Of a stretch of DNA of 64,000 bases, positions 12,925 to 57,695 are shown piece by piece. Location of the stretch: NCBI GenBank assembly GCA_026770705.1, contig JANJGN010000026.1:36270001-36334000 (forward strand). Reading direction: 5' to 3'. The translations under genes were made by a program, and so were the position numbers. Each line of letters opens with the position of its first letter. The first letter of the stretch is position 1. The notes below the pieces were generated by a model that saw only the letters and a program-made list of their open reading frames with translations, did no database searches and was not told where the DNA came from. Origin of the DNA: Isurus oxyrinchus. Its lineage: Eukaryota.

Positions 12925-13093
12925 AGTGCGGGTGTCTTTGTGTCTCTCCAGGTTGAATGATCAGTTGAAACCTTGTCCAGACACAGACCATGTGTATGGT
13001 TTCTCCTCGCTGTGACCGATGTGATGCTTTTTCAGGCTGTTCAGCTGGTTAAAGCTCTTTCCACAGTCAGTTCACTGAAACACTCTCACTCGG

Positions 13094-19797: not shown

Positions 19798-20149
19798 GTT
19801 GGGTGGTTAGTTCAAATCTCATCCACACAATTTGTCCTCGATGTGAATGGTGCAATGCTTTTTCAGGCTGTGCAATTGGTAAAACATTTCTCCTTCTATA
19901 TTAAAGATTCAATGATATCCAGCTCCAGATGTATTGAGTGAATCTGTCAGATTGTGACGTGATGTTTTCTTTGAGTTTCCTGTCAGCAAATCTTCCTGTT
20001 CAAGTATCCTGTAAAAGGAGTTTACTGAAGTCAGTAAGGGATAGAAATTCAGAACAGACAATTCCAGTTTCTTTCCTTTTTCTAATTTGTTCATGTGATG
20101 TGGGTGTCACTGGCAAGACCAGTATTTGATGCCCAGCTGGAATTGGGCA

Positions 20150-33556: not shown

Positions 33557-33626
33557 CCGGAACTCCAATAGCAGCAAGAATTGGATAGTAAATGGCATAA
33601 ACTACACCAGATATTCGGCCATGCAT
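33557..33626 (-). CDS. First coding exon of the GPR139-like gene (MHGRISGVVYAIYYPILAAIGVP)
   Basis: Family-typical YYP.LAA.GVP N-terminus. 70 nt, phase 1, matches the exon-2 phase (G+TT = Val). Donor is non-canonical (GC). Confidence 0.8.
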
Positions 33627-35854: not shown

Positions 35855-35892
35855 GCTCCTTTCAATTTAAACCCGAAAGTTGACAATTATTT

Positions 35893-36216
35893 GAACTCTT
35901 TCCGTGCCTTCCATTACTGTGTCTATAATCCCACCATGTTCAGGTTTTTGTACAGCTCTCTCCGTGCTCTGTATCACTGTGTGTCTGTTATCCCACCATG
36001 TTCAGGATTTTGTGCAGATCTCTCCGTGCTCTGTATCACTGTGTGTCTGTAATCCAACCATGTTCAGGTTTTTGTACATCTCTCTCAGTGCTCTCTATCA
36101 CTGTGTGTCTGTAATCCCAGCATGTTAAGTTTTTGTACAGCGCCCTCCGGTTTCTGTATCACTGTGCATCATGCTGAGGTTTTTGTACAACTCTCTCCGT
36201 GCTCTATATCACTGTG
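35893..36216 (-). repeat. Tandem array of 23-spacer recombination signal sequences (5 near-consensus plus 1 decayed)
   Basis: Heptamers CACAGTG at 36210-16, 36160-66, 36099-105, 36037-43, 35975-81. Nonamers at 36178-86, 36128-36, 36067-75, 36005-13, 35943-51 (ACAAAAACC x3, ACAAAAACT, ACAAAATCC). All spacers are 23 nt. Confidence 0.95.
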
Positions 36217-36488
36217 CTGTGCGCCAACTCAGTTCACAGTGATAAACTGCGGAGTCGCTCAATTGTAATTTGGAGATCTTCAACTGGCTGATTTTCTCCC
36301 CCAGGCAGCATTTTCTTTATTCTCCTCTCCTGAAATGTGTCCCTAAAGCAGATATTCCAGAGCCTGTCCTGGGGACTGACGGTACCAGCGTACTGTGCAG
36401 AACCCTGAATATTCCATGTTTAAAGTAACGGTGTCACCGATGGCAGAGATTTCTAGAGGCGAAATCCGGGAAATTATGGAACTGGAAT
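36217..36488 (-). pseudogene. Leaderless supporting TCR-delta V (NAR-TCR cassette 1)
   Basis: Acceptor TTTTTATCCTCCAG, phase 1. DSSSIISRISPLEISAIGDTVTLNMEYSGFCTVRWYRQSPGQALEYLL*..[fs]..KISQLKISKLQLSDSAVYHCELSWRT, then a perfect 23-RSS. CDR1 Cys kept; first canonical Cys lost; stop and frameshift present. Confidence 0.9.
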
Positions 36489-39419
36489 CTGGAGGATAAA
36501 AAAATGAACACAGCCAATATTTGTCCAGGAGAATTTGTCAATCGCGTGAATAGCTCTGCTTTTTGCAGTAATTTTATTTGCTGGAAGCCTATTTGAACCT
36601 TGTTCACTGTTATGAAAATATGACCAAATGGGGAATTAGGTGATGTTTTATTTTACATCGCGAGTTCTTCCGATCAGGACTGCACTGTCTGAATTGGTGT
36701 TGGGGATAGATTCAATAGTAACTTTCAAACGGGTAATGGGTCTGTGCTAGAAATGTAAATACAAATATAGAGCAAGGAGAAAATTCATGGGCAGTGGGAA
36801 CAATTGTATTACACTTTTAAAGGGTCAGTGCCTACACGATGGGCCGAATGTCATCCTTCCGTGCTGGATAATTCTATGAATTATATTACATTCCGGTTTC
36901 TACTTTCCTTGGTGAGACACATAGCTGGGGGAGCATTTTATGATCAGTGAGTCAATCAATTTCCAAAAAAAACATGTTTGTTGCAGAGAAACACAGCTGT
37001 GTGGCATCACTGCGCACAGCAAGATCCAACACAAACTGACGGGATTCATCAGCACCGATCGGGCCAAACCGTGAGTGAGCATCTCTTGTGGTGAAAGGTC
37101 AATCATTTACTGCGGTTTAAAACGGCTCGGGAATTTCTATCTGCCATTTGTTCTATTTCTATATATTCTATCAATAGGGTCCACTTTTCTCCAGTTCAGC
37201 TTAATTTCGAACACATGCAATTAATTTCATTTTATTTCTTTAAGTTCACATTCCTTTTATTTCACGTTAATTTTGTGCTGCTTGTGCTTTTTGCAATCGT
37301 GGGAACTTGTCCCAAATTCTCACAGTTGTCGGTTGGGCTCAGTCTGTTCAGTTTCCGCAGCGATTTTAACTGTTACTCACTGGGAACTGCCTCTTCTGGC
37401 TCTCTGACAATTTCAATTCCTTCCGCCCATTGGTTGATTCTCTCCTGGGTTCACTGGGCGGAGTTCTCTCTCAATTTTACATTATAGAGGAAGAAGAATG
37501 CAAAAGAGGAATGGGCCATTCAGCCTTTGTATATAATCAATTCCAGCTTGACCTCACCAGTAACCTAACTGACCATTTCCATCCAGCTCCCTGTGTTGGT
37601 CTGTTCCGTTCTCCCTCCTGAAATTTCAAGTGTTCCAATAAATATATCAATAATATCTGCCCCGACCTCTCCCTGTGGCAGCAAGTTCCACATTCTAACC
37701 TGCCTTTGTTTAAATTCATTTGTCTTAAATGTTTTATTTGTTCTGTTAGTTACTGTCATATGTTGACAGCTATTGCTTTGCACCTCAGCCACAAATGAAC
37801 AATTTCTCCACCATAAAACAGTTCATGATTCAAAAGATTTCTATGGATTCTCCTCTTGGTTCTGTTTTCCAGAAAAAAGAGACCCAGCCTGTTCAATCTT
37901 CGCAAAGAGATGTGGATTGTTGCTGATTTCTTTTCTCAGCAGTGTAAAAAATCAAAGCAGAGAATCCAATCAATAGAAACAGGAGCCCCCATATCACCTT
38001 TCAAACCTGCTCAGCCATTCGGGAATATCCTGGCAGATTTATAACCTCAACGTCACATTCCCCCACTCTCCCCATATCCCTGATCTTTTAGTGTCCGCAA
38101 ACCTATCAAATATTGTCTTCAAAGCAAACAGATACTGAACATCCACAGCCCTCTGAGTTACAGAATACCACAGATTCACAACAATGGTTCTACTGAAGAT
38201 GCTTTTTTCCTTCTCAGTTCTAATGGATGACTCTTTACTCTGAAGCTGTGACCCCGAGTTCTATACTCCTCAGTCTGGGGAGACACCGACCCAGAATCTC
38301 CCCTGTCAAAACCCTTCAGTATATTGTATGTTTTCATGAGATCACCTCTCATTCTTCTAACTCTAGGAAATATAGACAGAGACGACTAAATCTCTTCCCA
38401 TTGGACAATCCCTTCATCTCAGGAATCAGTCTGATGAAACATTGTTACACTCCTTCCAATGCAGATTGATCTCTCTTCTGTAAGGAGAACAAAACTTTAC
38501 ACAGCATTCCGGACTGGAGTCCATTTCAATCCTTCCCTCCATAAACCTCGTCCAACAGCTTGGGGTCGGATTGTACTTTAAAAGGCGCCCAGAAATCATT
38601 CAATCCTTCCCTCCCGTTCGATTCCTTATTTCTTGCTGGTTCTCAATGAACATTCCCACAGTTTCCTTCTGTCCCTATTCTCCTTTATAAGATTAATGCA
38701 TTACCCTGACTCGCTCACTGCACTGTGCTGTTTCAATTCCCAGTAATCAGGGATACAGATAAATTATAGCAATCCCATCTCTCAAACATCTACATTCAAT
38801 ATAGAGAAGTGTCTGCAGATCCAAACTTTCACATTTCAGTCTGAGGGCGGAAAAGCAGGAAAGTGATTCGTTTTATGAAGACAATTGAAAGAAATGGCAG
38901 GCAGAATGTTACTAATTTCAGTCATTGATTGTCCAAAAATAAAAATCCACCTGGACCTACATCAGGGTCTTATTTCTGAAGTCCGTGGTGTCACTCTCCC
39001 GTTTTTCTCCCGGGTCAGGTACTGAACGAGCCGCTGCAGGTATCCGAACTGGCCGAATTTGTGTTGAGTTTATTCACCTGGTGCTTCATTCACATTGCGC
39101 GGCTTGGACTGCAATCTGCTACCCAGGAGACAGCTCTGTGACCCCGCTCCCGAGCTCTAAGGGACAGACAGAGTTCCCTCGGTCACAGTTAACACCGGGT
39201 GTGGAGTCCGGATTGTCAACAATCTGCGCTCATTAAAAGCGATTCAGCGTCTGAGGGTCCATGATGTTGATATTGTCCCCGATGTGCCCGTTAAACCAAT
39301 AATGGCCCAGAATCCATCAACTCCCACATCCCACCCAAACTCCACTGATATCAATAATAAACTGTCTGTGAACATTACCCGGGACAGTCTGTAACGCGGC
39401 GGGGTTTGGAGTCACTTAC

Positions 39420-39511
39420 CGGCTGTGACAGTCACCAACGTCCCGGATCCATCCACATATTTAATACATCACCACAGTGACACCGCTCTCAGTCTCCCCG
39501 GTACAACAACC
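39420..39511 (-). other. NAR-TCR J segment with 23-RSS (cassette 1)
   Basis: Nonamer 39503-11, 23-nt spacer, heptamer 39473-79. Coding 39420-39472 reads (*)CIKYVDGSGTLVTVTA. Donor GTAAGT, phase 1. Confidence 0.92.
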
Positions 39512-39826
39512 GCAGACACCTCACCCTGCTGGGAAATCATTATCAGACAGTAGAAACTTCCCAATTATTCAGCGGATTTAAATAAATAAACAATATTCAA
39601 CGTTCCAAAGTCTCTGTTGGGTCAAACTGTTCTTTGTGAGGCCCTGAGCTCTGAGTATATGGTGCCCAAAACGAGATGTTCGCTTCATGTAAACCGACAA
39701 AAATAAGAAAGAAAGATAACTGAATGGTGGAAATTAAAATCAAATGTAACCAGATTCCATTGATAATAACATTAACCCGACAATTCACTATCCGAGCCCG
39801 GAGAATTTATATTTAAATCATACAGA

Positions 39827-39899
39827 GGTATTTGCTCAGGTCTCTCCTATTGTGACTCCCTCACCCATCCATACAGTGTTACAAGTCAGTATAACGTCC
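39827..39899 (-). other. NAR-TCR D segment flanked by 12/12 RSS (cassette 1), signals degenerate
   Basis: Coding TGGATGGGTGAGGGAGT (39855-39871). 3' RSS CACAATA-12-GCAAATACC; 5' RSS TACAGTG-12-ATAACGTCC (critical first C mutated). Position matches cassette 2. Confidence 0.75.
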
Positions 39900-40239
39900 C
39901 CCGGGTACTTGGGGAGATTTGGGGACATTAGTTAAACAGCAGGGACTGCGGTTCCCTGTACCAGCTGTTAGACCAGGATCACATCTGGTGTTCGAGGTTT
40001 GTAACTGGGATCAGTCGTTCCCAATCCTCACTCACTGACACCAATCCCGGGAATAATATCACCATCCGCACACACTCGGCATTTATAACACTCAAGATGT
40101 TAACAGCAATAATCCAATCTCATTATAAACTAGACTGTGGGGCAGACGGTCCTGTGGGGGAACTGAAGCGGAACTGTGGGGGTTTAACTGCAGACTTCAC
40201 TCCACTTTTCCATTTGTTTCTGTGACAATCTGCAGTGAG

Positions 40240-40717
40240 AGTTTTTGTATCGCGGGAAGCCGAGGCCCATCACTGTGTATCAATAGTATTGAGCTTTACA
40301 GTAATAGGTGGCGGTGTCTTCAACTCTCACATCCCGAATTTCCAGAGAAAATGTCTTTTCTACTTTATTCACCGACGCAACAATTCTCCCCGCGCTGTGG
40401 ATCGGGTCCCACAATGTCCCGGGTTTGTCTGAAGAAATGCCCATTTTTAAAATAATAATAATTATCATTGAAAACACAGGTGATGGTGAGAGACTGACAC
40501 TCCTTCCTGGTCACCGCTGCCGGGGTCTGTACCACTGACTGACTGAAAGAGCCTGGAAATTAAACAGAGAGAGTTTAATGGAGCATCAGAGCCGAACCAC
40601 AGAACTGGTTTAAAACCCCGGACAGTGTCTGTATTTGAGATGGATACGGACAGCTTTGTTTGATCTGCACTCACGGGGTAAACAGACACACAGAGTGAAA
40701 AGAAGGAGGATTCCCAT
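40240..40717 (-). pseudogene. NAR-TCR (IgNAR-like) V gene with split leader and RSS (cassette 1)
   Basis: Leader 40675-40717 MGILLLFTLCVCLP with GTGAGT donor. V exon 40278-40552: SFSQSVVQTPAAVTRKECQSLTITCVF..GHFFRQT[5-nt deletion vs cassette 2]GTLWDPIHSAGRIVASVNKVEKTFSLEIRDVRVEDTATYYCKAQYY*. Extra FR1 Cys, short CDR2 region. RSS CACAGTG-22-ACAAAAACT. Confidence 0.92.
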
Positions 40718-41592
40718 CTGCCTGGAGCTGAGGGTTTATATGACGGGGAGCTGGAGCCTGCAGCCTTGGACTGCACTGGGAGACCGGATCTCAGAGCTGG
40801 ACTGAAATACTTTAGGGGAATCGAGTTAATTTGCACAGGGCAGTTTCGCTGAGATTATTGATGGGCCGCATGGTTCCCGGATAGCTGGCTAAGTGTTGTG
40901 GAAATAAGAGACAGTTTTATAAAAGGAAACTGCAACTTTCTGACCTTTCGTTTGGATAGTGATCCGAATGTGAAAGCCCCTCCCACAATACTCTGGTGTA
41001 CAGGGTTGGGGGAGGGGAGCTTTACTTTCTGCCAGTTGTGCTGCCGCCTTCCTTGCCCCACAGTGGTGAACTGGGAGGTCGGTGCATGTCTTTGTATTGG
41101 GTGGTGTTTGTTAAAGGTGGAATGTGGGCCCAGGACACCGGGAGAAACCCCCCGACCCACTCTTACTCCAACATTCCGGAGATTCTCCCTGTCATTTAGC
41201 CAAATGCATCCTGCACCAGTCCTGCGATGGGTTACATGTAAAATGGCGTTTAATTTCAGCCATGTTTGACTTCCAGATTGGGAAAATTCAGAATTTCTGT
41301 TAGCAGTAAGTGAGATGGAAACGGCACTCGGGAGGACAACAGACCTTGGGGGGCTTTCTTCTTGGGGCTCTCTTTAAAGATGACAGTCACAACATTCTGT
41401 TCTGAAAACTGTTTCTGGTGTATGATTATCTCTCAACCAGCAACAGCAATACTCAATCAAATAAACCCCGTGACAAGGCCGAGGTCAGAGGCTTCACGAA
41501 GCTGACACCGGAGTTCGGGAAAAAGCTGCTCAACGTTGCGGGCAGGTACGGAAATGCCATTAAAAGGCGAAACGGAAATTAAGAACTGCAGC

Positions 41593-41888
41593 ACGTCACA
41601 CAAACATGGCCGACAGGACGTCACAAAAACATGATCAACAGTAAGTCACACAAACATGGCCGACTGTACGTCACAAAAACATGATCGACAGTTTCGTCAC
41701 GCAAAGATGATCTACCGTATGTCACACAAACCTGGCAGACAGCTTTTTCACACCAACATGGCCGACAGTACAACACAAACATGGCCGACAGTACGTCACA
41801 CCAACATGGCCGACAGTACGTCACACCAACATGGCCGACAGTACGTCACGCAAACATGGCCGATAGTACGTCACACAAACATGGCCGA
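41593..41888. repeat. 25-bp minisatellite, about 12 copies
   Basis: Consensus ACGTCACACAAACATGGCCGACAGT. Confidence 0.92.
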
Positions 41889-41989
41889 TGACTTGAGATG
41901 CAATGTGTAAAGTTACAATTTTTTCTGCACGTCCGGCCAACTCCTGTCAGCTTTCTCAACGTGATAAAAATGCTGCTTTGAGAAAAATA

Positions 41990-42900
41990 ATTAGTGTAAA
42001 TCACTGTTAAGGATAACATATATATGTGTCGTGCAAATAAACTTAGTTAATATAAACAGGGATTTGGTCAAGAATAGTAGTAACAAAGGCACGGCCTGGT
42101 GTAACATAAATAGAGGCAGGTTCTATTTCAGTATTAACTGAAGCAAGGCATGGAGTAAGGCAACTAGAAATTGGGTCTTGTGTAATGTAAACAGGAGTTG
42201 GGTTTCGAGCGGGAATAATAAAGAAAAGGCCTACCGAAATATAAGCAGGATCAAGGGTAATGAGATAATAATTCAGACAGATCTCCAGGTAACATGAACA
42301 AAGACATGGTCTAATGTAATCTACAGAGGGGCAAAGGCTATTTAAGTATAATGTGAGTACTGTCGTAGTGCAATATCAGCAGGGACGTGGCCTAGTGCAA
42401 TGTAAATTCAATCATGTCCTAGTGCAGTAGAGCACAGACAATGGCCAGTGTAATATAAACCGAGACAGAATCTAATTCAATAGCAAATCAGGCAGGGCCT
42501 AGCGTCATACAAGCAGAGACATGTCAAATGCCGCAATAAATGAGATTGTGTCTCATGTACCTTAAACAGAGACACAGGTTATTGTAATATAAAGATGTCA
42601 CATTGTCTGGTGTAACACTGAGACAGGATGTTGCTGAACACTAATGGAGATTATCTATTGCAATAATAACTGAGATGCGACCTAGGGAAACATAGAAGGA
42701 TATGCAACAACCTCTTGCAAATAACTGGAAAAAGGGACGAATGCAACATAAAGTGAGTGTCTGGTGTAATATAAACGCAAGCATTAAGATGTTGTAGTCA
42801 GTAATAACAAAAATTGCGCCTGGTGGAACATAAATGGAGGCAATCTAATGCAGTAATAGATAAGACATGATTTACTGTGACTGTCCAGTGCACTAATAAA
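41990..42900 (+). repeat. Highly decayed ~27-bp satellite
   Basis: Recurrent TAGTGTAATATAAACAGAGACAGGGTC-like units. Related tracts at 34260-34480 and 54850-55700 (inverted) and 63070-63290. Confidence 0.65.
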
Positions 42901-42949
42901 TGAGTATTGCTTAGTTCTCGAATACTGGTTTAGAACCAGGCACTGAACT

Positions 42950-44160
42950 CATGCCACTTATCTTCTCACCTATTTTGTGTCATCTGCAAATTTGACGATT
43001 GTATATTCACTTCCCTCATCTAAGTCATTAATATATGTTGTAAATAATTGAGGCTCCAACACTGATCACTGTGGCGCCCCACTAGTTACAGATTGCCATG
43101 CTGAAAATGCCCCCCCCACCCCTTAACCCATCTCTCTGTCTTCTATTAGTTAGCCAATCCTTTATCCATGCTGATATACTACCCCCAACACCGTTATCTT
43201 ATTAAGTAGCCATGTGTGAAGTACCTTGCCGAACGCATTTTGGAAATCAAAATACATTACATCTACTGGCTATCCCCTTTCAATCTTACTTGTTACCTCA
43301 CCAAAAAATTATACTTAATTTGTAAGACATGATTTCTCCTTCTTGAAGCCATGCTGACTCTGCTTCATTAGACTATGTATTTCTAAAGGCTCTGCTATTG
43401 CATCATTTATAATAGACTCCAATATTTTCCCAAGGACAGATGCTAAGCAAACTGGCCTGTTTTTCTACAAACCCCAATTCCTCTGTCAGGGCAGAAATGC
43501 AAACACCGTCCCACTCCACTGCTGATCCAACCAACGTCAAACGAGAAACAGCAGCAAGCACCTTTCCAAAGCACAGGAAAGACAAAAAAGGCCAGAGGAA
43601 TAGAAACATACAAAACTATGTGGGGAGGTGGCCTTGTGCACCGTTGCCTCATGTAAATCTGTCTTCTACCTCTTAGCTTAAATCTCTGTCCCCTGGTTAT
43701 TGACTCCTCTACTTATGGAAAAATTGCCTTCCTATCCACCCTAGCTGTGCCACTCATAATCATATGCACATCTATCAGGTCCCCTTTCAACCTTCGTTGC
43801 TCCAAGGAAAACAACCTGTGATGACACTTTTGGCCCTCTATCACTACCCGCCTGTTTGGGGGCCTATAGTACACACCAAAACTCGTGTTTGCTCTTTTAG
43901 CGTTTCTTGCTTCTACCTACATGGCTTCGTTTGATGACCCTTCTAAAATATCATCACTCCCCAAGATTCCTTGATCAATATTGCAACCCCCCAATCCAAC
44001 TCTTCTAGCCCTCTCTCCACTTCGTCCGAATACCCTATAACCAGGAAGCTGCCAATCCTAGCCATCCTTTAGCCAAGCCTTGGTCATAGCTATGATATCA
44101 TGCCCTTGGTGCCTATCTGTATCCTCAGCTCGTCAGTCTTATTCCTCACGCCCCTTACAA
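42950..44160 (-). mobile_element. CR1 LINE fragments
   Basis: RT piece (~42950-43460) and APE piece (VRNKTDELRIQIG) on the minus strand. Confidence 0.7.
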
Positions 44161-44269
44161 TAATTATATTCAATTTGTGTTCCATTTGTAAATGTTTAAA
44201 ATGGAACATTTGAATGGAACATTTAAAATAGAACATTTTAACAAGAACACCCAGAAACTGATTCCTGCT

Positions 44270-46850
44270 CAACGATGAGTATAAGGGACATCAAATGTTA
44301 GTGCGGGTTGTATATAGACCCGAAACTGTGGTGGTGATGTTGGGACTGGAATTAAACAGGAAATTAGAGACGTATCCAATAAAGAAACATCTGTAATTAT
44401 GGGTGACTTTAATCTGCATATAGATTGGGCAAATCAAATACCGTAGAAGAAGAATTCTTGGAGTGTATACAGGATGGCTTTCTGGACCAATGCATTGAGA
44501 AACGAACTAGAGAACAGGCTATTATTGACTGGGTATTGTGTAATGAGAAAGGAATAATTGGCAATCTAGATGTGCCAGGCCCCTTGGCGATGAGCGGCCA
44601 TAATATGATAGAATTCTTCATCAATATGGAGAGTGACGGAGTTGATTCTGAGACTGGTGTCCTGAACCTTAATACAGGAAACTACGATGGTGTGAGGCGT
44701 GCGTTGGCGATGATGGATTGGGAAACGTTACTTAAAGGGATGACGGAGGTTAAGCAATGGCAAACATACAAAGAGCGCATGGGTGAACTGAAACAATTGT
44801 TATTCCTGCCTGGTGCAAAAGTGAAACAACAAACGTGGCCAAACCATGGCTTATGAGAGAAATTAGAGATAGTATTAGATGCAAGGAAGAGGCATACAAA
44901 TTGGCCAGGAAAAAAATAAAGCAGACCTGTGCATTGGAAGCAGATTAGAATCCAACAAAGGAGGACCAAGGTATTGATTAAGAAGGAGAAAATAGAGTAC
45001 CAGAATAAGATTGCAGGGAACGTAAAACCTGACTGTAAAAGTTTCTATACGTATGTGAAGAGAAAAAGGTTAGTGAAGACAAATGTAGGTCCCTTACAGT
45101 CAGAAACGGGAGAATTTAAAATGGGGAGCAAAGAAATGGCTGACCAAGTAAGTACATACTTTGGTTCAGTCTTCACAAAGAGGACACAAATAACATACTA
45201 GAAATGTTGGGAAACACAGGGTTTAGAGAGATGGAGGAACTGAAAGAAATCTGTATTAGTAGGGAAATGGTGTTGGGGAAATTGATGGGATTGAAGGCCG
45301 ATAAATCCCCAGGGCCTGATAATCTACATCCCAGAGCACTTAAGGAAATGACCCTAGAAATAGTGTATGCATTGGTGGTCATCATCCTAGATCCTATACA
45401 CTCTGGTACAGTTCCTGCAGATTGGAGAGTAGCTAATGTAACCCCACTATTTAAAAAGAGAGGTACAGAGAAAACAGGGAATAAAAGGCCAGTCAGCCTG
45501 ACGTCGCTAGTGGGGAAAATTCTAGAGCCCATTATAAAAGCTTTAATAGCTGAGCACTTGGAAAACATTGGCAGAATCGGACAGTCAGCACGCATTTACG
45601 TCAAATCTATTGCAATTCTTCGAGGATGTCACTAGTGGAGTGGATGCGTTTTAGTTGGACTTTCAGAAGACTATCGACAAAGTCCCACAGCAGAGATTAG
45701 CATGTAAAATTAAAACGTATGAGATTGGGGATAGTGTGTTGAGATGGATAGAAAACTGGTTGGCAGACATGAAACAAAGAGGAGGAATACACGGGACATT
45801 TTCCGAATGGCAGGCAGTGACAAGCCTTAGGGATCGGTGCTGCGTCCCCAGCTATTAACAATAGATATTAATGATTTAAATTAGGGAACTAAATGTAATA
45901 CCTCTAAATTTGCAGATGACACAAAGCTGGGTGGGAGGGTGAGTTGTGAGGAGGATGCAGAGAAGCTTCAGTGTGATTTGGACAGGCTGAGTGAGTGGGA
46001 AAATGCATGGCAGCTGAAGCATAATGTGGATAAATTTGAGGTTATCCATTTGGATGCAAAAACAGGAAGGCAGATTATTATCTGAATTGCTATAAATTGA
46101 GAGAGGGGAATGTGCAATGAGACCTGGGTGTCGTCGTACACCAATTGCAGAAGGTAAGCATGCAGATGCAGCAGGCGCAAAAGAAGGCAAATGGTACGTT
46201 GACCTTCATAGCAGAGGATTCCAGTACAGGAGCAGGATGTCTTGCTGCAATTGTACAGGGCTTTGGTGAGACCACAACTAGAATATTATGGCCAGGTTTA
46301 GGCTCCTTATCTGAGGAAGGATGTTCTTGCTATAGAGGGGGTGCAGCGACCATTTATCAGACTGATTCCTGGGCTGGCGGGACAGACATATGAGGAGTGA
46401 TTGTATCGGTTACGATTATATTCGCTGGGGTTCAGAAGAATGAGAGCAGAATCTCATAGAAGACTATAAAATTCTAATAGGGCCATTCAGTGTAGATGCA
46501 GGAAGGATGGTCTCGATAGCGGGGGAGTCCAGAACCAGAGGTCACAGTCTGTGGATACAGGGTAGACCATTTAGAATTGAGATGAGAAGAAATGTCTTCA
46601 CCCAGAGAGTGGTGAGCGTGTGGAATTCGCTACCACCAAAAGTATTTGATGCAGAAATATCGCATAATTTCAAGAAGTAGTTAGATATAGCTCTTGGGGC
46701 GAAAGGGATCAAAGGGTATGGGCAGAAAGCGGGAGCAGGCTATTGAGTTGGATGATCAGCCACAATCATGATGAATGGCGGAGCAGGCTCGAAGGGCCTA
46801 TGGCCTACGCCTGCTCCTACTTTCTATGTTTCTATGTTTTTATGTTTTCT
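44270..46850 (+). mobile_element. CR1 LINE ORF2, 5'-truncated, degenerate
   Basis: KSPGPDNLHPRALKE..VPADWRVANVTPLFKK..RPVSLTS; SKFADDTKL; TTTCTATG repeat tail at ~46820. Confidence 0.92.
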
Positions 46851-46911
46851 AAACACGAAATATTTATTTTTTGCGAGCAAACACAATTGGGAATATGTCC
46901 AATAGATTTTT

Positions 46912-46923
46912 TGTGTGTGTGTA

Positions 46924-46968
<45 letters not shown>
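46912..46968. repeat. Compound (TG)n(GA)n microsatellite
   Basis: Directly visible. Confidence 0.95.
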
Positions 46969-46969
<1 letters not shown>

Positions 46970-47649
46970 GGGGGGTGCGGGGAAGGGGTGGGGAGAGAGA
47001 GATAGACAGTGACCAGCAAGAATACACAGAACCCGCACACATTCTCGAGGCAAGGTATCGGGGCACAACAGAAGAGTTCAGGGAGACTGCTTGCAGGACC
47101 GCAGGCAGTGCTGATTGTCACAAACTGTGGCAATGATCATAGGCAGCTCATTGAAACTGGGCTTTCAGATAGATGCAGGAAGTGATGGGGGCCGATATGC
47201 TGGCGAAGACAACTCAAAATTCTCCCCCCTCCTCTCCACCGCCCCCTCTCCCCAACTCCATACCCCCCCCCCACCTTGATCCCGAAAGCCTCGACTGACA
47301 GGAGGCTCCAAATAAAGCGCAGGGTCCCAGAGCGGAAATAATGTGGCCAATATATCATCTGAAGTGTTGGCTTTTGGCTGTCACCCAACATTGTTATTTG
47401 ATTGTTTCATTCATTTTTAATTTTCTCTCTGTTTGCCCATTCCAACATTGATTCGACTCTCTTCTATTCATCGATCTATAATTCTAATTGCTTCTCTGAC
47501 AAGCTTTTTATCCCAGTCAGTGTCAGCATGTACATTTATATCTGAAGCTATGTCAATCATCATGTAAAATCTATCAATTTGTTTTTCCTGCTCCTTTGTC
47601 TCCGGAACGAAGAGTCCTTAAATGGCAAAAACGTGTTCTATCTATTTTA

Positions 47650-47993
47650 NNNNNNNNNNNNNNNNNNNNNNNNNNNNNNNNNNNNNNNNNNNNNNNNNNN
47701 NNNNNNNNNNNNNNNNNNNNNNNNNNNNNNNNNNNNNNNNNNNNNNNNNNNNNNNNNNNNNNNNNNNNNNNNNNNNNNNNNNNNNNNNNNNNNNNNNNNN
47801 NNNNNNNNNNNNNNNNNNNNNNNNNNNNNNNNNNNNNNNNNNNNNNNNNNNNNNNNNNNNNNNNNNNNNNNNNNNNNNNNNNNNNNNNNNNNNNNNNNNN
47901 NNNNNNNNNNNNNNNNNNNNNNNNNNNNNNNNNNNNNNNNNNNNNNNNNNNNNNNNNNNNNNNNNNNNNNNNNNNNNNNNNNNNNNNNNNNNN
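47650..47993. other. Assembly gap (344 N) abutting the second RSS array
   Basis: Run of N. Confidence 1.
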
Positions 47994-48180
47994 TGTTTCA
48001 CTGTATCTGGAATCCCCACTTTGTTCAAGTTTTTATAGAGCTCTCTCTGCGCTTTGTATCTCTGTGTGTCTGTAATCTCACCATGTTTAGCTTTTTGTAC
48101 AGCTCTCTCCGTGCTCTGTATCACTATGTGTCTGTAATCCCACCATGTTCAGGTTTTTGAACAGCTCTCTCCGTGATCTA
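47994..48180 (-). repeat. Second tandem 23-RSS array (at least 3-4 decayed units, runs into the gap)
   Basis: Heptamer remnants 47999-48005, 48060-66, 48122-28; nonamer remnants 48028-36, 48090-98, 48152-60. Spacers 23 nt; same linker TGTCTGTAATCCCACCATGTTCA as array 1. Confidence 0.9.
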
Positions 48181-48267
48181 ACCCTGAACATTCACAGCTT
48201 CAAGTAATGGTGTCACCGACAGCAGATGTTTGTAGAAGCGGGCACTAAGACACCAGGGAACTGGAAT
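48178..48267 (-). pseudogene. Supporting TCR-delta V of cassette 2, FR1 stump only
   Basis: Acceptor TTCTCCAG; DSSSLVS*CPLLQTSAVGDTIT*SCECSGL fused directly into an RSS spacer. Confidence 0.85.
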
Positions 48268-49671
48268 CTGGAGAATTAAAAAGAACATTATTTGTTTGTT
48301 TAGCCATTGTTTACCTGGGAGAATTTGTCAATGACATGAAAGGTTCGTTTTTCTAAACTTCAAGCAAGCCTGTTCCATCCGTATTCACCGTCATTGAAAT
48401 GTGATTAAGTGCAGAGATGATAATTTTCTTTTGTATCGAGAATTTTTCCAATCTGCACTGCGTGGTCAGAATGGGTGGTGCGAACGTACTCAGTGGGAAC
48501 TTTCAAATGGCTGATGTATCTGTACTGCAACAGGAAAAATGTACAGCCTCATGAGGAAATACATGCGTTTTGGTAAAAGTTAGATTGCACTTTGAAAGTG
48601 ATAGCATCTCCACGATGGGCCGAATGTCATTCTACCTCTCGGCGTGGTTCTCTGTTGTATATTACATTTCTGCTTCTATTTTCCTTGGTGAGTGACACCC
48701 CGATGGAACAGTTTCCAAAAAATGATTGTATGGGACAATCAGCATCAGCATCACTGTGCGCAGCATGATCGAAATGAAAGTGTTTGTGATTAATCAGCAT
48801 TGATTGAAACTTCTCTCTTCCCCGTTCTAATGGCCGACCCCTTATGCTGAAACTTTGGCTCCCATTTATAGACTTTCCAACCTGAGGAAACTCCCACCTA
48901 GAACCTTCCCTCTCAAGCTCCTTAAGGATATCATGTGTTCTCATGAGATCGCCCTCATTGCTGTAAATTCCAGGAAACACAGGCCCAGTCTACTCAATCC
49001 CTTCCCATAGGACAATCCCTTTACTTCAGGAATCAGTCTGATGAACATTTGTTCCAAAGCATGTACAACCTTCCCTAAGTAAGATACCAGACTTTACACA
49101 GCATTCCAAACTGGAGTCCTTCTCTCCATAAACGTCGCCCACCACCCTGTGCTCGGATTGTACTTTGAACGGCCCAGACATCAACCAATCCTTCTCTCCC
49201 ATTCGATGAATTATTTCTTGCTGGTTCTAAATGAATATTCTCTCAGTTTATAATTTTTTCCTTATGTCCCTGTTCTCCTTTATAAGATTAATGCATCATC
49301 CTCACTCTCTCACTGCACTTTGCGTTTTTAATTCACAGTAATCAGGGATACAGATAAATTACAGCAATCCCATCTCTCAAACATCGACATTCAATATAGA
49401 GAAGTGTTTGCAGTTCCAAACTTTCACATTTCGATCTGAGGATGGAAAAGGAGGAAATGATTGGGTATATGAAGACAATTGAAAGAAATGGCGGGTAAAT
49501 GACCCGACTGTCCGATCATACCCGGTTCCTAAATTGAAGCCTGCAACGGAAAAGGTCCCTTAGAAATCGTTTTTTTTTTAGCTTCGATGTGATTGAAACG
49601 ATGTTGATCACAAAATGACTGTGAACATTATCCGGCACAGTCTGCAACATGCGGGCTTCAGAGTCACTTAT

Positions 49672-49749
49672 CGGCTGTGACAGTCACCGCCATCCTGGAT
49701 CCATCTACATAATTAGCACACCACTCTCAATCTCCCAGGTACAAGAACC
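49672..49749 (-). pseudogene. NAR-TCR J of cassette 2 (heptamer deleted, donor mutated)
   Basis: NYVDGSRMAVTVTA. Donor ATAAGT instead of GTAAGT. Nonamer 49741-49 and 23-nt spacer are present but the heptamer is missing. Confidence 0.88.
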
Positions 49750-50056
49750 ATCGACAACTCAACCTGCCAGGAAATCATCATCGGGCAGTAGACACCTCAC
49801 AATTATACAGCAGGTTTAAATGAATAATCAATATTCAATGTTTCAAAGTCTCTATCTGTTCAAACTGTTCTTTCTGAGACCCTGAGCTCTGAGTAAATGG
49901 TCCCAGGAATGAGATATTCGCTTCATATAAACCGGGAAAAATATCAAAGAAAGATTACTGAATGGTGAAAATTAAAATGAAATGTAACCAGATTGCAACG
50001 ATATTAACATCAACCCGACAATTCACTATCCGGGCCCGGAGAATTAATATTTACAA

Positions 50057-50115
50057 AGTATTTGCCCTACTCTCTCCCACTGTGACTGCCCGTGTAACAA
50101 GTTAGTATAAAATAC
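50057..50115 (-). pseudogene. NAR-TCR D of cassette 2 (5' heptamer and part of the coding end deleted)
   Basis: 3' RSS CACAGTG-12-GCAAATACT intact (50057-50084). Only 7 nt of coding sequence plus GTG of the 5' heptamer remain before the 12-nt spacer. Confidence 0.75.
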
Positions 50116-50247
50116 CCACGGGTACTAGGTGAGATGTGGGGACATTAAACAGCGGGGACTGCAGTTCCCGGTTCCAGCTGTTAGAACAGGATCACATCTG
50201 GTGTTAGGGGTTTGTAACTGGGATCAGTTATTCCTAATCCCCATTCA

Positions 50248-52757
50248 AAAATGAGAAAATAAATTACTGAGTTAGAGACGTATGCAATAAGGGTACAACT
50301 GTAATCATGGGTGACTTTAATCTACATATTGATTGGGCAACCAAACTAGCAATAATACTGTGGAGGACGATTCCTGGAGTCTGTACGTGATGGTTGTTTA
50401 GGCCAATACGTTGAGGAGCCAACTGGAGAGCAGGTTATCCGAGACTGGGTATTGTGCAATGAGAAAGGATTAATTAACAACCTTGTTGTGCAGGGTCCCT
50501 GGGGGAAGAGCTACAATAACATGATAGAATTGTTCCTTAAGGTGGAGAGTGAAGGAGTTGAATCCGAAACTAGTGTCCTGGATCTAAATAAAGGGAACTG
50601 CAAGGTTATGAGGGGAGAGTTGGCAATGATGGATTAGGGAACCTTACGAAAAGAGCTGACAATGGATCGGCAATGGTTAATATTTAAGGAACGTATACAA
50701 CAATTATTCATTCCCGTCTGGCGCAAACATAGTATGGGAAAGATGGTTCAACCATGGATTACAAAAGAAATTAGGGATAGTATTAGATCCAACGAGTAGA
50801 CATAAAAAATTTCCAGAAAAAGCTTCAATCCTGAGAGTTGGAAGCAGTTTAGAATTCAGCAAAACGGGAAAAAAAGACTGATCAAGAAGGGGAAAATGTA
50901 GTACGAGAGTAAACTTGCAGGGAACATAAAAACTGATTGCAAAAGCTTCCATAAATATGCGAAGAGAAAATGATTAGTAAACTAACACTCACAAACGGGG
51001 GAAACTATAGTTGGGAACAAAGAAATGGCATAAAAATTAAAGAGATATTTTGGTTCTGCCTTCACAAAAGGCAACACAAGTAATTTCCCAGAAATGTTAG
51101 GGAACCAGTGAGAGCGAGGAATTGAAGGAAATTAGCATTAGTGAAAAAAATTGTGCTGGACAAATTAATGGCGTTAAAATCTGAAAAATCCCCAGGGCCT
51201 GATAATCCACATCCCAGATTTCTAAAGGAGGTGACGCTGGAAATATTGGATGCATAGGTGGTCACCTTCCAAAATTCTATAGACTCTGGAACAGTTCCTA
51301 CATATTGGGGAGTGGCAAATGTAACCCCATTATTTTAAAAAAGGAGGGAGAGCAAAAACAGATAATACAGAGCAGTTAGCCTAACATCAGTTATGGGGAA
51401 AATGCTAGAGTCTGTTATAAAAGACATGCTAACTGAACACTTGGAAAGCATCAATGGGATTAAACAAAGTCAGCATTGGTTTATGAAAGGGAAATCATGC
51501 TTAACTAATCTACTCGAGTTTTTTGAGGATGTAACTAGTAGAATAGATAAGGGAGAACCACTAAATGTGGTGTATTTGGATTTCAAGAAGGTTTTAATAA
51601 GGTCCCACGTAAGAGTCTAGTGGACAAAAGTAAAGCACATGGGATTGGAGGTAATATACTGGCTTGTATTGAGAATTGGTTGACAGACCAGAAACAGGCA
51701 GTGGGAATAATGGGTCTTTTTTCCAGGTGGCAGGCCGTGACTAGTGGTGTCCCGCAGAGATCAGTGCTTGAGCCCCAGTTATTCACAACATATATAGATA
51801 ATTTGGATGAGGAAACCAAATGCAATATTTCCAAGTTTGCTGACGACACAAAACTGGACGGGGCTGTGAGATGTGAGGAGCATGCAAGAGGGATTCAGGG
51901 CAATTGAGACAAGTTGTCTGTGTGTGTCGGCAATCACATGGCAAATGCAGTATAACGTGGATAAATATAAAGTTACGCTTTGGTGTGAAAAACAGAAAGT
52001 CAGAGCATTATATAAATGGTGATAAATTGGGAAATATGGGTGTAGGAAGGAGTTTGGGTGTCGTTGTACACCAGCCAATGAAACTAAACAGGCAAATTAG
52101 GAAGGAAAATGGTATGTTGGCCTTCATTTAAAGTGGATTTGATTTCAGAAGTAGGGATGTTTTACTGTAGTTGCAAAGGGCCTTGGTGAGAACACACCAG
52201 GAGCATTGCGTGCAGATTTGGTCTCTCTACGCAAGAAAAGATATATTTGCCGTAGAGGGAGAGCAGCGAATGTTCACGAGGCTGATACTGGGCGTAGCAG
52301 CACTGTCGTATGAGGAGAGATTGGTTCAACTGGGCCTGCATTCACTAGAGTTTAGAAGAATGAGAGGGGATCTGATTGAAACACATATAATTCTAACAGC
52401 GCTAGACAGACTAGATGCAGGAAGGATGTTTTCCCTGGTTGGGGAGTCCAGAACCAGGGGCCACCGTTTCAGAATACGTGGAAGGCCATTTAGGACCGAA
52501 ATGAGGAAAATTCCTTCACTCAGAGGGTGGTCAACCTATAGAATTCTCGACCAAAGACGGCTATGGAGTCACTGAGTATATTCAAGAAAAAAATCGACAC
52601 ATTTTTGGATATTAGTGGCATCAAGTGGTATGGACAGAAAGCGGGAATATGGTGTTTAGATCGAGGATCAACCATGATAATATTGAATGGCGGAACAAGA
52701 TCGAAGGGCCGAACGGCCTACTCCGGCTCCTATTTCTATGTTTCTATGTTCCTCTGT
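50248..52757 (+). mobile_element. CR1 LINE inserted between V and D of cassette 2
   Basis: RT motifs (KSCLTNLLEFFEDVT, GVPQRSVLEP, SKFADDTKL) and TTTCTATG tail. The flanks are contiguous in cassette 1 (~40030). Confidence 0.92.
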
Positions 52758-52987
52758 TTCACCAACACCAACCCCGGGGAAGCCTTCACCATCTACTTGG
52801 TAGTTTTAAAACTGAAGATGTTAACGGCAATAATCCAATCGCACTATAAACTAGACTGGGGGCCGGGGGGTGGGGGGGGGGGCGGGGGCGGGGGGGGAGG
52901 GGGCAGACGGTGTGAGGCGGAACTGTAGGCGTTTAACAGCAGATTAACTCCGCTTTTTTACCTGTTTTTATGATAATCTGCAGTGAG

Positions 52988-53491
52988 AATTTTTGTATTC
53001 CGGGAAGCCGAGGCCAGTCGCTGTGTAACGTAGTACTGAGATTTACAGTAATAGGTGGTAGTGCCTTCAACTCTCACATCCCAAATTTCCAACGAAAATG
53101 TCTTTTCTGTTTTATTCATTATTCATTCAATGTCCCCCTGCTGGAGATCCGCTCCCGCTCTGCCCCGGTCTGGGTTTGTCTGATGAAAAGCCCCGTTTGG
53201 AAAATATCCCAATAACCAGCATGGAAAACACAGGTGATGGTGAGAGACTGACACTGCTTCCTGGTCACCACTGCTGGGGTTTGTGCCACTGGCTGACTGA
53301 AATCTCCTGGAAATTAAACAGAGATAGTTTCATGGACCATCAGAGCCGAATCACAGAACCGGGTCAAACCCCCTGTCTGTAATTGGGATGGACCCGGGCA
53401 GCTTTATATGACATCCACATAATGTCGGTTTGTGTGATCGGTACTCACGGGGTAAACAGACACACAGAGTGAAAACAAAGTGGATTCCCAT
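52988..53491 (-). pseudogene. NAR-TCR V gene with leader and RSS (cassette 2)
   Basis: Leader 53449-53491 MGIHFVFTLCVCLP. V exon 53026-53306: DFSQPVAQTPAVVTRKQCQSLTITCVFHAGYWDIFQTGLFIRQTQTGAERERISSRG[fs]MNKTEKTFSLEIWDVRVEGTTTYYCKSQYYV. RSS CACAGCG-22-ACAAAAATT. Confidence 0.92.
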
Positions 53492-55704
53492 CGTTCTGCT
53501 GCCTGGAGCTGGGGGTTTATATGACTGGGAGTTCTAGACTGCAGCCCTGGACTGCACTGGGAGGCCGGACCTCAGAGCTGGACTGAAAGATTTTAGGCAC
53601 GAAAATTAGGCCACGCCTGCCATTTAATTAAATCAAGGGTTCAAAGGGGGCGGAGCTGTTGCACTCAGTCTGTTGCTGCTTCGGAACTCACGACCCCCGA
53701 ATCCGGCCTCGTAACCCCACTGGGTGTCGCGTGACACGCAGTTTGGGATGCCCTGCTTAATGTGGGCTAATGCTGATTTGCAGAGGGCAGTGTCCGCGAG
53801 ATCAGTGGTGGGCCGCACGGATACACGGTCTCTGGTTGTGTGTTGTGTGAATAACTCTCAGGCTGAATGAGGGAAGCTTACAGCTATCTCTTGCTTCATT
53901 GGAGCTGGATGTTAAATCCCCTTCACATTTCTCTGTTGAACAGGGCGGTGTGAGATGGGTGTGGTTCTGTCAGTAGGTGCTGCTGCCCTCCTTCCCCCTG
54001 TAGTAAGGAGCTGGGAGGTGGTTCCATGTGTATTTACTGTGTGGTCTTATTTCCACTCATTGCAATACTGCAGGGAATTCATTAACACCCTGAAGAGGTT
54101 GACGGGATCTGGGTTAAATGCCTGACCTCAGTCCAGCAGCTGATGATCAGCTTGCAATATGATACAGCCCATTGACAACATCCAGGAAGATATATACAAC
54201 ATACGCGAAAAACAACACCCCTCTCTCATTTAAACAAACGCTTCCCTTCTCTGTTTTGCATTTAAAATGATGATTCAATTCAGTGAGGATTGATTTCCAG
54301 TTCTGTAATATTCAGACTTATCATTAACAGTGACAGAGTCTGCGAGTAAAGAATCCAGGACATGACAGAGTTCATGGGAAAGGGACTGTGCAATATTACA
54401 GGCAGACCTAGACATGTCAATAACGGAAAAAACGGGGAATTCCCGATAGCGTCTGGCCGCACAAAAAAGGCTGACTGTGCGGCGCACAAGCAAGGCAGAC
54501 GGGAAGTCACACAGAACTAGTCGATATTCGATATTCTTATTGACATTCCAGCAAACAGGGCGTCCGCAATGTCCAAATATTTACCCAAATACGTGACTCT
54601 CATCATAGTGCCCGTTGTTTACCATTTTGTGCTAATATCCACCAGGTTCGTTATAAATTGGTTACTGTTTTATCTCTGGGCAAAACAACTGCTTATCTCA
54701 AATTTTAAATACCCGTTTTCCTGCCGAGCGATTTACAGATCAGCATGGAACTTACCAGAGAAGTCATAGCTTTAGGCATTTGCGCAGAAACTAAATCGTG
54801 AGATTAAACTTGCAATGAAGTTTGAGCCTCTGTTCGTGTTTCAACAGGTCCGGATTATAATTGTACTAATCCTGCCCTTGATTGTGGCACGAGACTCTGC
54901 CTCTGTTAGTGTGTTGCCTGGTCTTGATTATTATTTTCTGCCATTTGTCGTTGATAGATAGACATCGGTGTGACTCTGATAATATTTGGCTAGACCCTGT
55001 TTATTATTTCATTAGTCCCTGTCTCCTCGATTACCACATTACTTTCTGCCTGTGGTTATGTTTCTACAGACCCTCACTATTATTTCATTAGTCTCTGGCT
55101 CCTTGATTATTACAGTATGCTCTGTCTCATTTACTGTTTCACCAGGGCCTGATTATGATTGTTCTAGTCCACTACTTCTTGATTATAAAATGGCCATCTA
55201 TCCAAGTAATCATTGCACAAAATTCTATCTCTGGCTGTATAACAATTGACCCTGTCTCAATTGTTATTGCACTCGATCTTGTCTCTGTTTATATGACAGG
55301 AGTCCCTTTCTATGTCTATGTCGATGTCTATGCGGTTGTTTCCATTACGCTAGACCTTTTTTAAGTTAGTACTACTCCTCTAGACAATGTCATTGTTCAT
55401 CTTTGTTACAGTGTATATTACAACATATCATATCCCTGTTTATACTACACTCAATCCTGCGTCTGCCAACATTAAGCTAGACCATGTCATTATTTAGATT
55501 GCACCGGTTATTAAGTTATTACTGCATTGGGTGACGCATATATATCACATTGACCCTGTCTCATTTACTGCTGCATTCTTCTAAGCCATGTCCAGTAATG
55601 ACTTGCCGAGATCACACCATTCATAGTATTATATTAGACTCCCTCTCGGTTGTCATTGCAGGAGGTCTTGTCTATAATCCTATAAGACATCAAGTGTAAT
55701 ATTC

Positions 55705-56260: not shown

Positions 56261-56793
56261 AGGTTATTGAAACCCAGACGTTGCCGAATGGGGCCCGATG
56301 TAGATCAGCGAGCGTAGGGTTAATGGACGGATGGGATTTGGTATGAATGTGGGTAACTCTTTCGAGTACAAACCCATTTCCATCTGTTTCAGATGAAGTT
56401 ACATTGTTTCATGGTTTTGCCATTGTGAGATTTGAACTCTTGAGGTTACAAACCCAGTACCATAACCACTTGGCTATTTAGGCCAAGCATGAATGTGGGT
56501 ATCGGCAGCTGTCTCAGATGAACTGAAATTGGATAACTAGCCTTGGGCTGACTCAGTGACGAGAGAGCTGAGATTGTGGTGGGAACGGATTGCAATGCCT
56601 TCTGGATTGACACACGTCTAATCCAGAATTGGATGTTTTACAATTACCAATGGCTTTTGAAGATTTGTGGTCTAGAGATGGCATAGGGACGGATTAGGAG
56701 GGGATCAGTAACTGATTGGATAAGGCAGTAAATGGTGTTTGCAGTTCACTCGGTAACATCTCACTCTTTTTATCCCTCACGTTCATCTATCAG

Positions 56794-57695
56794 CTAACGT
56801 AGTGGTGATCATAATCCTATCCCGAAGACAGTGTGGACTCTCCCGGTGCATCACCTACTACCTGGTGGCAATAGCAGTGAGCGATCTCCTGGTCATTATC
56901 ACTGCCGCCATCCTCAACCGGATTGGCCGGATCTACTTTCGTGACAGTGTCCTGTCGACCACCCCAGCAAGCGCAGTCAGCATCATGCTGGTCTTTGCCA
57001 TGCAAGATGGCTCAGTCTGGCTGACAGTCGCCTTCACCATCGACCGTTTCGTGGCCATCTGCTGTCAGGGCCTAAAGACCAGATACTGCACCGAGAAAAC
57101 TGTGGTGCTGGTTATAGGAGTGGTCAGTACCCTGAGGTGCGTCAAGAACGTCCCTTTGTACTTCGTCTGCCAGCCTTTGTACATCCTGGACGGGGTGCCC
57201 TGGTTCTGCGACCTCAAATCCACCTATTTCACTTTCCTCGCCTGGCAGGCCTCATACTAGCTGGACCGCATCTTAACCCCATTTCTCCCTTTCTTCCTCA
57301 TCCTGCTGCTCAATGTCCTGACCGTAAGACAGATCTTAGCGGCCAGTAGAGCCCGCAAGAGGCTCCGGGGCGCCGAGAGTCACAGAGACCCTGAGATGGT
57401 CAATCGTAAGTGATCCATTATCCTGCATTTTGCGATTGCACTCAGCTTCCTCCTCCCGTGGGCCACCTATGTTGGACATTTTCTCTACGTGTGGATTACA
57501 AGTAAGGGCTGCTTCAACAGCATGAACTTCAATGACCCGCAGTATATCCTCCAGGAGACAGCCAACATGCTGCAGTTAGTCAGTTCCTGCAACAACGTCT
57601 TCATCTATGCGGTGGCCCAGAAGAAGTTCCGAGAGGAGCTGAGGAAGGTTTTGATGTGGCCGGTCACCACGTTCACTGGCTGGTTTAAACGGTAA
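56794..57695 (+). pseudogene. GPR139/GPR142-like GPCR main exon with two nonsense codons
   Basis: ANVVVIIILSRRQCGLSRCITYYLV..FTIDRFVAIC..SSCNNVFIYAV. In-frame TAG 57258-60 and TGA 57411-13. CAG acceptor 56791-93. Exon 1 not found. Confidence 0.9.

Follow-up and report, generated by a model that had tools for sequence, protein, structure and literature searches.

The 64,000-nucleotide stretch of Isurus oxyrinchus DNA analysed here (the window, to which all positions refer) carries two cassettes of the shark NAR-TCR, the doubly rearranging T-cell receptor (TCR) delta described by Criscitiello, Saltis and Flajnik in 2006 (via PMC1845163, PMC6795676 and PMC12227049). In both copies, the supporting V-delta segment was followed by a tandem array of recombination signal sequences (RSS) with 23-nt spacers; within the cassettes the array was confined to this segment, and the signals of the NAR V (variable), D (diversity) and J (joining) segments were single. 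Comparison with other shark sequences makes it highly probable that the supporting V-delta carries such an array as an old feature common to sharks. The cassettes themselves are almost certainly tandemly duplicated, pseudogenised members of the dispersed V-gene field of the TCR alpha/delta-immunoglobulin heavy chain (IgH) complex, whose constant region normally lies hundreds of kb to Mb away. We suggest, with a probability of roughly 0.45, that the array aids the capture of the cassette in long-range joining to D-delta and J-delta (D/J-delta). The cassettes and their arrays were located as follows:

40717-35883, minus strand: cassette 1, whole extent
35883-36216, minus strand: cassette 1 tandem 23-spacer RSS array, directly behind the supporting V-delta
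53491-47994, minus strand: cassette 2, whole extent
47994-48179, minus strand: cassette 2 RSS array remnant, with a half unit, units at 48128 and 48066, a partial unit at about 48005 and then a gap of 344 N

A unit of the array was defined by a CACAGTG heptamer, a 23-nt spacer and a ACAAAAACC-like nonamer, and five of the six units of cassette 1 can be classed by sequence as putative 23-RSS with 0-1 mismatch. Their heptamers, at 36216, 36166, 36105, 36043 and 35981, all read CACAGTG, their nonamers showed 0-1 mismatch, their spacers were 23 nt long, and a decayed sixth unit followed at about 35921. The units, separated by linkers of 11, 22, 23, 23 and 21 nt, were arranged head to tail with a period of 62 and 86% matches in a repeat scan (periods 61-62 overall), and 29-37 of 39 nt were identical between them. 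The remnant in cassette 2 had a period of 62, 2.9 copies and 3 mismatches per unit before it ran into the N gap. In the whole window, seven RSS with at most one mismatch were detected, while 100 order-2 Markov simulations produced 0.04 on average and at most 1, and this set is therefore not due to chance; five of the seven form the array behind the cassette 1 V-delta. All five full units retained perfect heptamers despite the decay of the V-delta itself. An in-frame TGA lies within the first heptamer, both in the window and in most gene models, so that a coding join is possible from the first signal alone.

The G-rich core of the array linker may resemble the cores of vertebrate D-delta segments. 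No opposing 5' 12-RSS was present inside the array, which rules out D-delta segments, whose layout is a short segment between a 5' 12-RSS and a 3' 23-RSS (PMC3457774). A read-through extension of complementarity-determining region (CDR) 3 was also rejected, since the V frame runs into a stop at the first heptamer, in the window as well as in 18 of 27 unspliced models, and the models that stay open through it are enriched by annotation bias. An assembly artefact was rejected because the units are not identical to one another and are found again in other species, although the cassette 2 array ends at an N gap. A search of Rfam gave no matches.

To follow the array in other sharks, 39 homologous gene models were surveyed for read-through beyond V-delta. 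With a period of 61-62, successive units translate in successive frames, so that read-through models reveal the array. Eighteen models stopped at the first heptamer, 10 continued into other exons, 4 had a brief read-through and 2 had no V-delta; all five remaining, far-reading models (whale shark P0010, epaulette shark P0031-33 and sawshark P0037) showed a second or third unit. When the sequence beyond the first nonamer was shuffled, 0, 8, 0, 0 and 0 of 1000 shuffles (8 for P0031) scored as well as the linker-plus-RSS match. A profile of the array tail, searched against 1.84 billion representatives, matched two sequences, both of them supporting V-deltas: P0160, with five units at a period of 61, and P0161, with three. 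Having been found with the array profile, these two stand outside the five-of-five count. The five heptamers of P0160 were all compatible with CACAGTG, and 87-88 of 100 residues of its V-delta were identical to Mustelus models; the ESM Atlas was uninformative on its tail (best score 0.76). The occurrence of the array in a sawshark and in several galeomorph orders indicates that it is older than their split. Sawsharks and galeomorphs separated more than 200 million years ago.

Local joining in a live cassette would link NAR V, D and J to one another (22/12 and 12/23), the supporting V-delta would join a distant D/J-delta through its own 23-RSS, and the J would then be spliced to V-delta. The array stands at exactly the segment that makes the long-range join, and it thus offers a concrete handle on how two V(D)J reactions are completed on one allele. 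If it aids capture, several strong signals would raise the odds that RAG at a distant D/J-delta centre captures the cassette in either orientation; at mouse Igk, V segments of both orientations can be captured by diffusion where the RSS are strong, and such RSS also prevail in secondary joins over short range (PMC11153149, PMC13190342). The presence of the array at the supporting V-delta in both cassettes, and the existence of Mb-distant, bidirectional cassettes in two species, are in line with such a role. Capture of an outer signal by a D-delta 12-RSS would delete or invert the intervening megabases. Occurring first, this join would be non-coding, yet it would set the cassette beside D/J-delta and leave the inner signals unharmed; the gene would then be completed when the first signal is joined, over short range, to a D-delta or J that is still present. 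In mouse TRBJ1-7 and TRBJ1-2, alternative RSS are used and germline DNA is retained (PMC6857471). A further possibility is that the array loads RAG close to NAR V-D-J, whose rearrangement has to take place far away from the usual centre. A more far-reaching version, which we offer as tentative and somewhat unlikely, is that the array is a selected, shark-wide recombination ladder never described at any vertebrate V gene, in which the outer signal pulls in the Mb-distant cassette and the inner signal completes the join. If this were true, the ladder would account for the coordination of two rearrangements on a single allele, would predict a class of excision circles of its own and D-poor CDR3s in NAR-TCR supporting domains, and would mean that signal copy number, not strength alone, can tune V(D)J recombination.

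Several results weigh against a selected role. The conservation of heptamer and nonamer sites did not differ significantly from that of spacer (and linker) sites, with p=0.11 for cassette 1 and p=0.26 for both cassettes. The comparison of signal with spacer was likewise not significant when the downstream units of five foreign proteins were counted (p=0.56; P0160 alone, 0.09) or those of the window (p=0.12 and 0.50); P0032 and P0033 were excluded from the totals as near-duplicates of P0031, and a spacer indel restricted the count for epaulette shark units 2-3 to their first 22 nt. Pooling of the two long arrays (window and P0160) gave 3 changes in 107 signal sites versus 19 in 166 spacer sites (p=0.011), a post hoc figure that is limited to the two best arrays and ignores the relatedness of their units. 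In whale shark and epaulette shark, as well as in P0161, the second heptamer looked broken (1-2 inferred changes), which indicated that several cassettes of the orectolobiform type make do without intact outer signals. The arrays of cassettes 1 and 2 were 85.7% identical, no higher than most flanks (81-86%), so that an array more conserved than its flanks was not seen in this comparison. The foreign arrays, moreover, were read from protein and not from DNA, and the ladder would require a spare downstream 12-RSS.

The non-significant tests, the decayed outer signals in the three orectolobiform-type cases and the flank-like identity would all be expected of a neutral minisatellite, in which an ancestral tandem duplication that included the RSS was copied with each cassette, unequal exchange expanded, shrank and homogenised the repeats, and only the first signal mattered, chromatin or RAG scanning rendering the others harmless. 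The variation in copy number (2 to 6 units) and in linker length (unit period 59-63 nt) points the same way, and the slow evolution of shark genomes (PMC12227049) would keep neutral DNA recognisable. We consider this explanation a real possibility, though we lean away from it, as at least five units with intact heptamers have been kept in two lineages (window and P0160), where none of 47 assessable downstream heptamer sites had changed compared with 19 of 166 spacer sites (post hoc), and as cleavable extra signals should cost productive joins, in which case neutrality is not the default. Alternatively, the outer signals might be decoys: by wasting or postponing the joining of V-delta, they would limit the frequency of NAR-TCR or let NAR V-D-J go first. 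A double rearrangement presumably needs some ordering, and an outer join would be non-coding wherever an in-frame TGA sits in the first heptamer (18 of 27 unspliced models, and the window); weak signals, however, are a simpler and known limit on V use (bioRxiv 2020.01.20.913046), and the inner signals would still be usable after an outer join, so that a decoy would not be terminal, which makes such a brake or timer improbable. An aid to long-range capture is the role we favour. Even a neutral array would mark NAR-TCR cassettes, and why cleavable extra signals are tolerated would be a puzzle; for annotators, repeat masking and single-RSS pipelines hide such arrays.

The assignment of the cassettes to NAR-TCR was supported by their gene segments, which were homologous between the two copies (71-86% identical region by region) and came in the same order in both: leader, NAR V, D, J and leaderless supporting V-delta. 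The segments of cassette 1 (FR, framework region) were:

40675-40717, minus strand: leader exon (MGILLLFTLCVCLP) with a phase-1 GT donor; 13 of 15 residues identical to shark NAR-TCR model P0012
40278-40552, minus strand: NAR V exon with an FR1 Cys (RKEC) and no FR2 Trp
40240-40277, minus strand: single RSS of the NAR V with a 22-nt spacer; heptamer at 40277, one mismatch in total
39827-39899, minus strand: D of 17 nt (39871-39855) between two degenerate 12-spacer RSS
39420-39511, minus strand: 23-spacer RSS (39511-39473) and NAR J (39472-39420), DGSGTLVTVTA, with a phase-1 GT donor
36217-36488, minus strand: leaderless supporting V-delta pseudogene with a phase-1 acceptor, CDR1 Cys (SGFC) kept

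Those of cassette 2 (LINE, long interspersed nuclear element) were:

53449-53491, minus strand: leader exon
52988-53306, minus strand: NAR V (53306-53026; RKQC) and its single 22-spacer RSS
50248-52759, plus strand: 2.5-kb LINE-type insertion between V and D, placed by its breakpoints
50057-50115, minus strand: D remnant, in which a 14-nt deletion takes most of the 5' heptamer and the core; 3' 12-RSS kept
49672-49749, minus strand: J remnant, in which a second 14-nt deletion takes the heptamer; splice donor AT, not GT
48180-48267, minus strand: 5' third of the supporting V-delta only, with stops

Four of the six V pieces matched Pfam V-set at E<=0.1, and the V pieces matched shark NAR-TCR models with E values down to 1e-29. 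Of 20 candidates, 10 were matched by the V-delta piece of cassette 1, and of 46 candidates, 36 were matched by the NAR V piece; all named matches of the two were models from sharks, with either a NAR V or V domains in tandem, and the named protein matches of the V pieces and of the G protein-coupled receptor (GPCR) described below all came from sharks or rays. Shark gene models, great white NARTCR models included, were 69-80% identical to the two cassettes, and the eight best models for the cassette 1 NAR V 76-80%. Among the matches was great white LOC121270138, labelled NARTCRdV in Table S1 of PMC12227049. In a tree made of supporting V-deltas, with no ordinary V-delta as outgroup, the cassette 1 V-delta fell among the other members, nearest to models of basking shark (P0024) and great white (support unstarred), on a terminal branch of 0.24 (median, 0.073), a length typical of a pseudogene. 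A lamniform origin is therefore probable.

The known hallmarks of NAR-TCR are an a-b loop Cys, the lack of the WYRK Trp and a leaderless V-delta with a CDR1 Cys (PMC1845163). In the window, the NAR-type V was recognised by its leader exons, by RKEC and RKQC, and by GHFFRQ and GLFIRQ, and the a-b loop Cys motif was present in 37 of the 39 homologous models. The leaderless V-delta showed its CDR1 Cys as SGFC in cassette 1, cassette 2 being deleted at that position; this Cys was found in 35 of the 39 models, and no match to a leader was detected upstream of either V-delta. A link between the two V domains through these cysteines is an old proposal. In all five Scyliorhinus supporting V-deltas of the set (P0002, P0008, P0018, P0025 and P0030), Trp replaces the first canonical Cys, and three of them also lack the second, while the CDR1 Cys remains.

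These data bear out three points of the initial annotation, which had been made from sequence alone: the NAR-TCR identity, on the strength of the defining features and of the affinity to labelled NARTCR models; the extra cysteines, RKEC/RKQC in NAR V and SGFC in the cassette 1 V-delta; and the death of both cassettes, as each of the four V exons is disrupted by frameshifts, stops or deletions and an open frame is not kept. In cassette 1, the NAR V has a frameshifting deletion of 4-5 nt near 40420, and the V-delta has lost its first canonical Cys and has a 2-codon deletion, an in-frame TAG and a frameshifting deletion of about 28 nt; in cassette 2, the NAR V has a frameshift and a stop near 53130, and about two thirds of the V-delta, its 3' part, are deleted. 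Two further points held in part. A leader and V with a 22-spacer RSS, a D between 12-RSS and a J with a 23-RSS, all ahead of a V-delta, had been described twice, and the pairing of a phase-1 J donor with a phase-1 V-delta acceptor as common to both cassettes. Cassette 1 showed the whole arrangement, with its own D and J, 12/23-compatible RSS and a J spliced in frame to the V-delta 2.9 kb beyond it. In cassette 2, the D and J with their 12/23 RSS were recognised only as damaged homologues because of the deletions, and the J donor reads AT, so that the phase match stood in one of two cassettes.

The 22-nt spacer at the NAR V of both cassettes (40240-40277 and 52988-53025) is thus ancestral to the pair and not a lesion. 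The LINE-type insertion, which contains decayed reverse-transcriptase-like open reading frames (ORFs), was absent from the equivalent place in cassette 1. The D and J deletions of cassette 2 (50085-50094 and 49705-49720) are each 14 nt long and each take a heptamer; this may be due to chance or to germline RAG activity. The 5' part of V-delta and the adjoining intron (36401-36916 vs 48180-48692) were 71-73% identical between the cassettes, compared with 81-86% elsewhere and 86% in the arrays, which makes it likely that two paralogues contributed to one of the cassettes as a mosaic. A candidate extra exon at 38900-39360 was rejected; it had stops in all three minus frames and was unmatched by 39 Ig-type queries. 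In several NCBI models (P0003, P0005, P0006, P0007 and P0024), the spacer and heptamer of the J-RSS have been translated as if they were exon (AVSLW...); the stretch matches window positions 39486-39421 and is an artefact of annotation. A 25-nt tandem repeat of 12 copies was found at 41589-41888, 0.9 kb upstream of the cassette 1 leader, and a stretch upstream of cassette 2, near 54450-54520, looked similar by eye.

The initial annotation had regarded the lack of recognisable D-delta, J-delta and C-delta in the 35 kb downstream as unusual. The lack itself was confirmed. Five shark TCR constant-region queries gave best tblastn E values of 0.21 or worse in the window, the cassette 1 J was the only J-like motif in its six frames, and the RSS scan of the window showed no D-like segment with a 12/23-flanked pair except the cassette D, D-delta being too short to exclude by similarity. 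It is nevertheless ordinary by the published tables of two species. In great white, seven NARTCR models (three plus-strand, four minus-strand, one marked "pseudo??") lie at 8.43-17.12 Mb and a TCR constant-bearing model at 8.20-8.35 Mb, and in stingray three NARTCRV models lie 2.1-2.5 Mb from the delta-constant model, on the opposite strand (PMC12227049, Table S1). Because these cassettes are 0.1-8.8 Mb from the constant region, in both orientations (same table), the absence of C-delta from 35 kb is expected and is no sign of an orphon.

The GPCR gene, zinc-finger (ZNF) genes and repeats reported downstream were all identified, as an intact two-exon GPR139-like gene, three C2H2 zinc-finger blocks and LINE-type elements. 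The two exons of the GPCR were:

33558-33626, minus strand: exon 1, 2.3 kb downstream of the array; 87-91% identity
22672-23580, minus strand: exon 2 of the same gene

The GPR139-like genes form a very large elasmobranch family (2524 matches of 4244 candidates). Among the 120 matches listed, 33 of 49 from horn shark, as well as the second and third best relatives, lay on a contig of 59,489,666 bases, the size shown for the contig of four horn shark NAR-TCR models, and the single whale shark match lay on an 11,734,621-base contig, the size shown for two NAR-TCR models; judged by equal contig sizes, this supports a shared chromosome and not gene order or fine interleaving. Between the two alternatives raised initially, orphons or a locus interleaved with GPCR and ZNF families, these shared contigs favoured interleaving. 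Movement of the cassettes from the TCR alpha/delta complex to an unrelated GPCR/ZNF region, where they died without a constant region, is a question separate from the role of the array. It would agree with the death of both copies, with the absence of any other antigen-receptor segment from the 64 kb, with the 16 of 49 listed horn shark matches on other contigs and with the lack of great white or basking shark GPCRs among the 120 matches listed, but cassettes that are in situ routinely lie at Mb distances from C and some of them are pseudogenes, and the closest GPCR relatives stand on NAR-TCR-bearing contigs of horn shark and whale shark, so that we regard it as very unlikely.

For zinc-finger clusters near immune genes of sharks, the MHC-Ia-like genes provide a precedent (PMC10751288). 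In the window, the three C2H2 blocks, of 7-10 fingers on the minus strand (7421-8397, 12025-13031 and 19012-19900), each run over two frames and may be frameshifted. A second GPR139-like gene, at 56757-57695 on the plus strand upstream of cassette 2, had in-frame stops and was 55-59% identical to its relatives; its exon 1 was not found. The 10-kb intron of the intact GPCR contains a near-complete LINE (26400-31248, minus strand), whose ORF1 has ZCCHC3-type RNA-binding and zinc-knuckle domains and which includes a 603-aa endonuclease/reverse transcriptase stretch.

The NAR-TCR cassettes and their distance from C-delta were known already; the array behind the supporting V-delta appears to be new, with prior mention possible. 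No published description of a tandem RSS array at a V gene was found, in a search that did not cover the primary NAR-TCR papers of 2006, 2019 and 2021. The array is not mentioned in the accessible portions of PMC12227049, PMC1845163, PMC6795676, PMC5931798, PMC3457774, PMC4279169, PMC3149040, PMC4315296, PMC6857471, PMC2996982, PMC10751288, bioRxiv 2026.09.05.749481, PMC11153149 or PMC13190342, and the accessible part of the supplement of PMC3964593 (elephant shark genome) was irrelevant to it. Nor was a published description found of GPCR genes interleaved with the NAR-TCR locus.

Compared with known systems, the cassettes agree with shark NAR-TCR in the leader and the NAR V with its a-b loop Cys and without the WYRK Trp, in their own D and J, in the leaderless V-delta with a CDR1 Cys, and in the scattering far from C-delta in both orientations; they differ in that both window copies are pseudogenes and in the 23-RSS array behind the supporting V-delta. 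IgNAR clusters share the NAR-type V, and VNAR chains were among the best single-domain PDB matches (E 2e-9), but the same query gave 80-89 bits on NAR-TCR models versus 41 bits on the best VNAR (in different databases). IgNAR has three D (PMC4279169) versus one here, and constant exons follow its J where V-delta follows here; the single D per cassette and the V-delta after J rule out an IgNAR cluster. Ig-like tblastn queries, which did not include IgNAR constant sequences, gave no matches outside the cassettes. Mammalian TCR-mu (PMC3457774) likewise has two V domains per chain, one of them a supporting V, but it is derived from antibody VH, has its own constant region per cluster and is of convergent origin, and no array is described for it in the accessible text. 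At mouse TRBJ1-7 and TRBJ1-2 (PMC6857471), a second signal lies, as here, a few tens of bases from the gene border; RAG uses it there, and germline RSS DNA stays in the coding joint. The mouse J genes, however, have a single, dissimilar, cryptic 12-RSS, whereas the shark V has 2-6 homologous consensus 23-RSS in a regular array, which is kept across shark orders. Igk (PMC11153149, PMC13190342) resembles the situation proposed here in the capture of V genes over Mb in both orientations with later short-range joins; there, each V has one strong signal, while in sharks a multiplied signal would be the solution.

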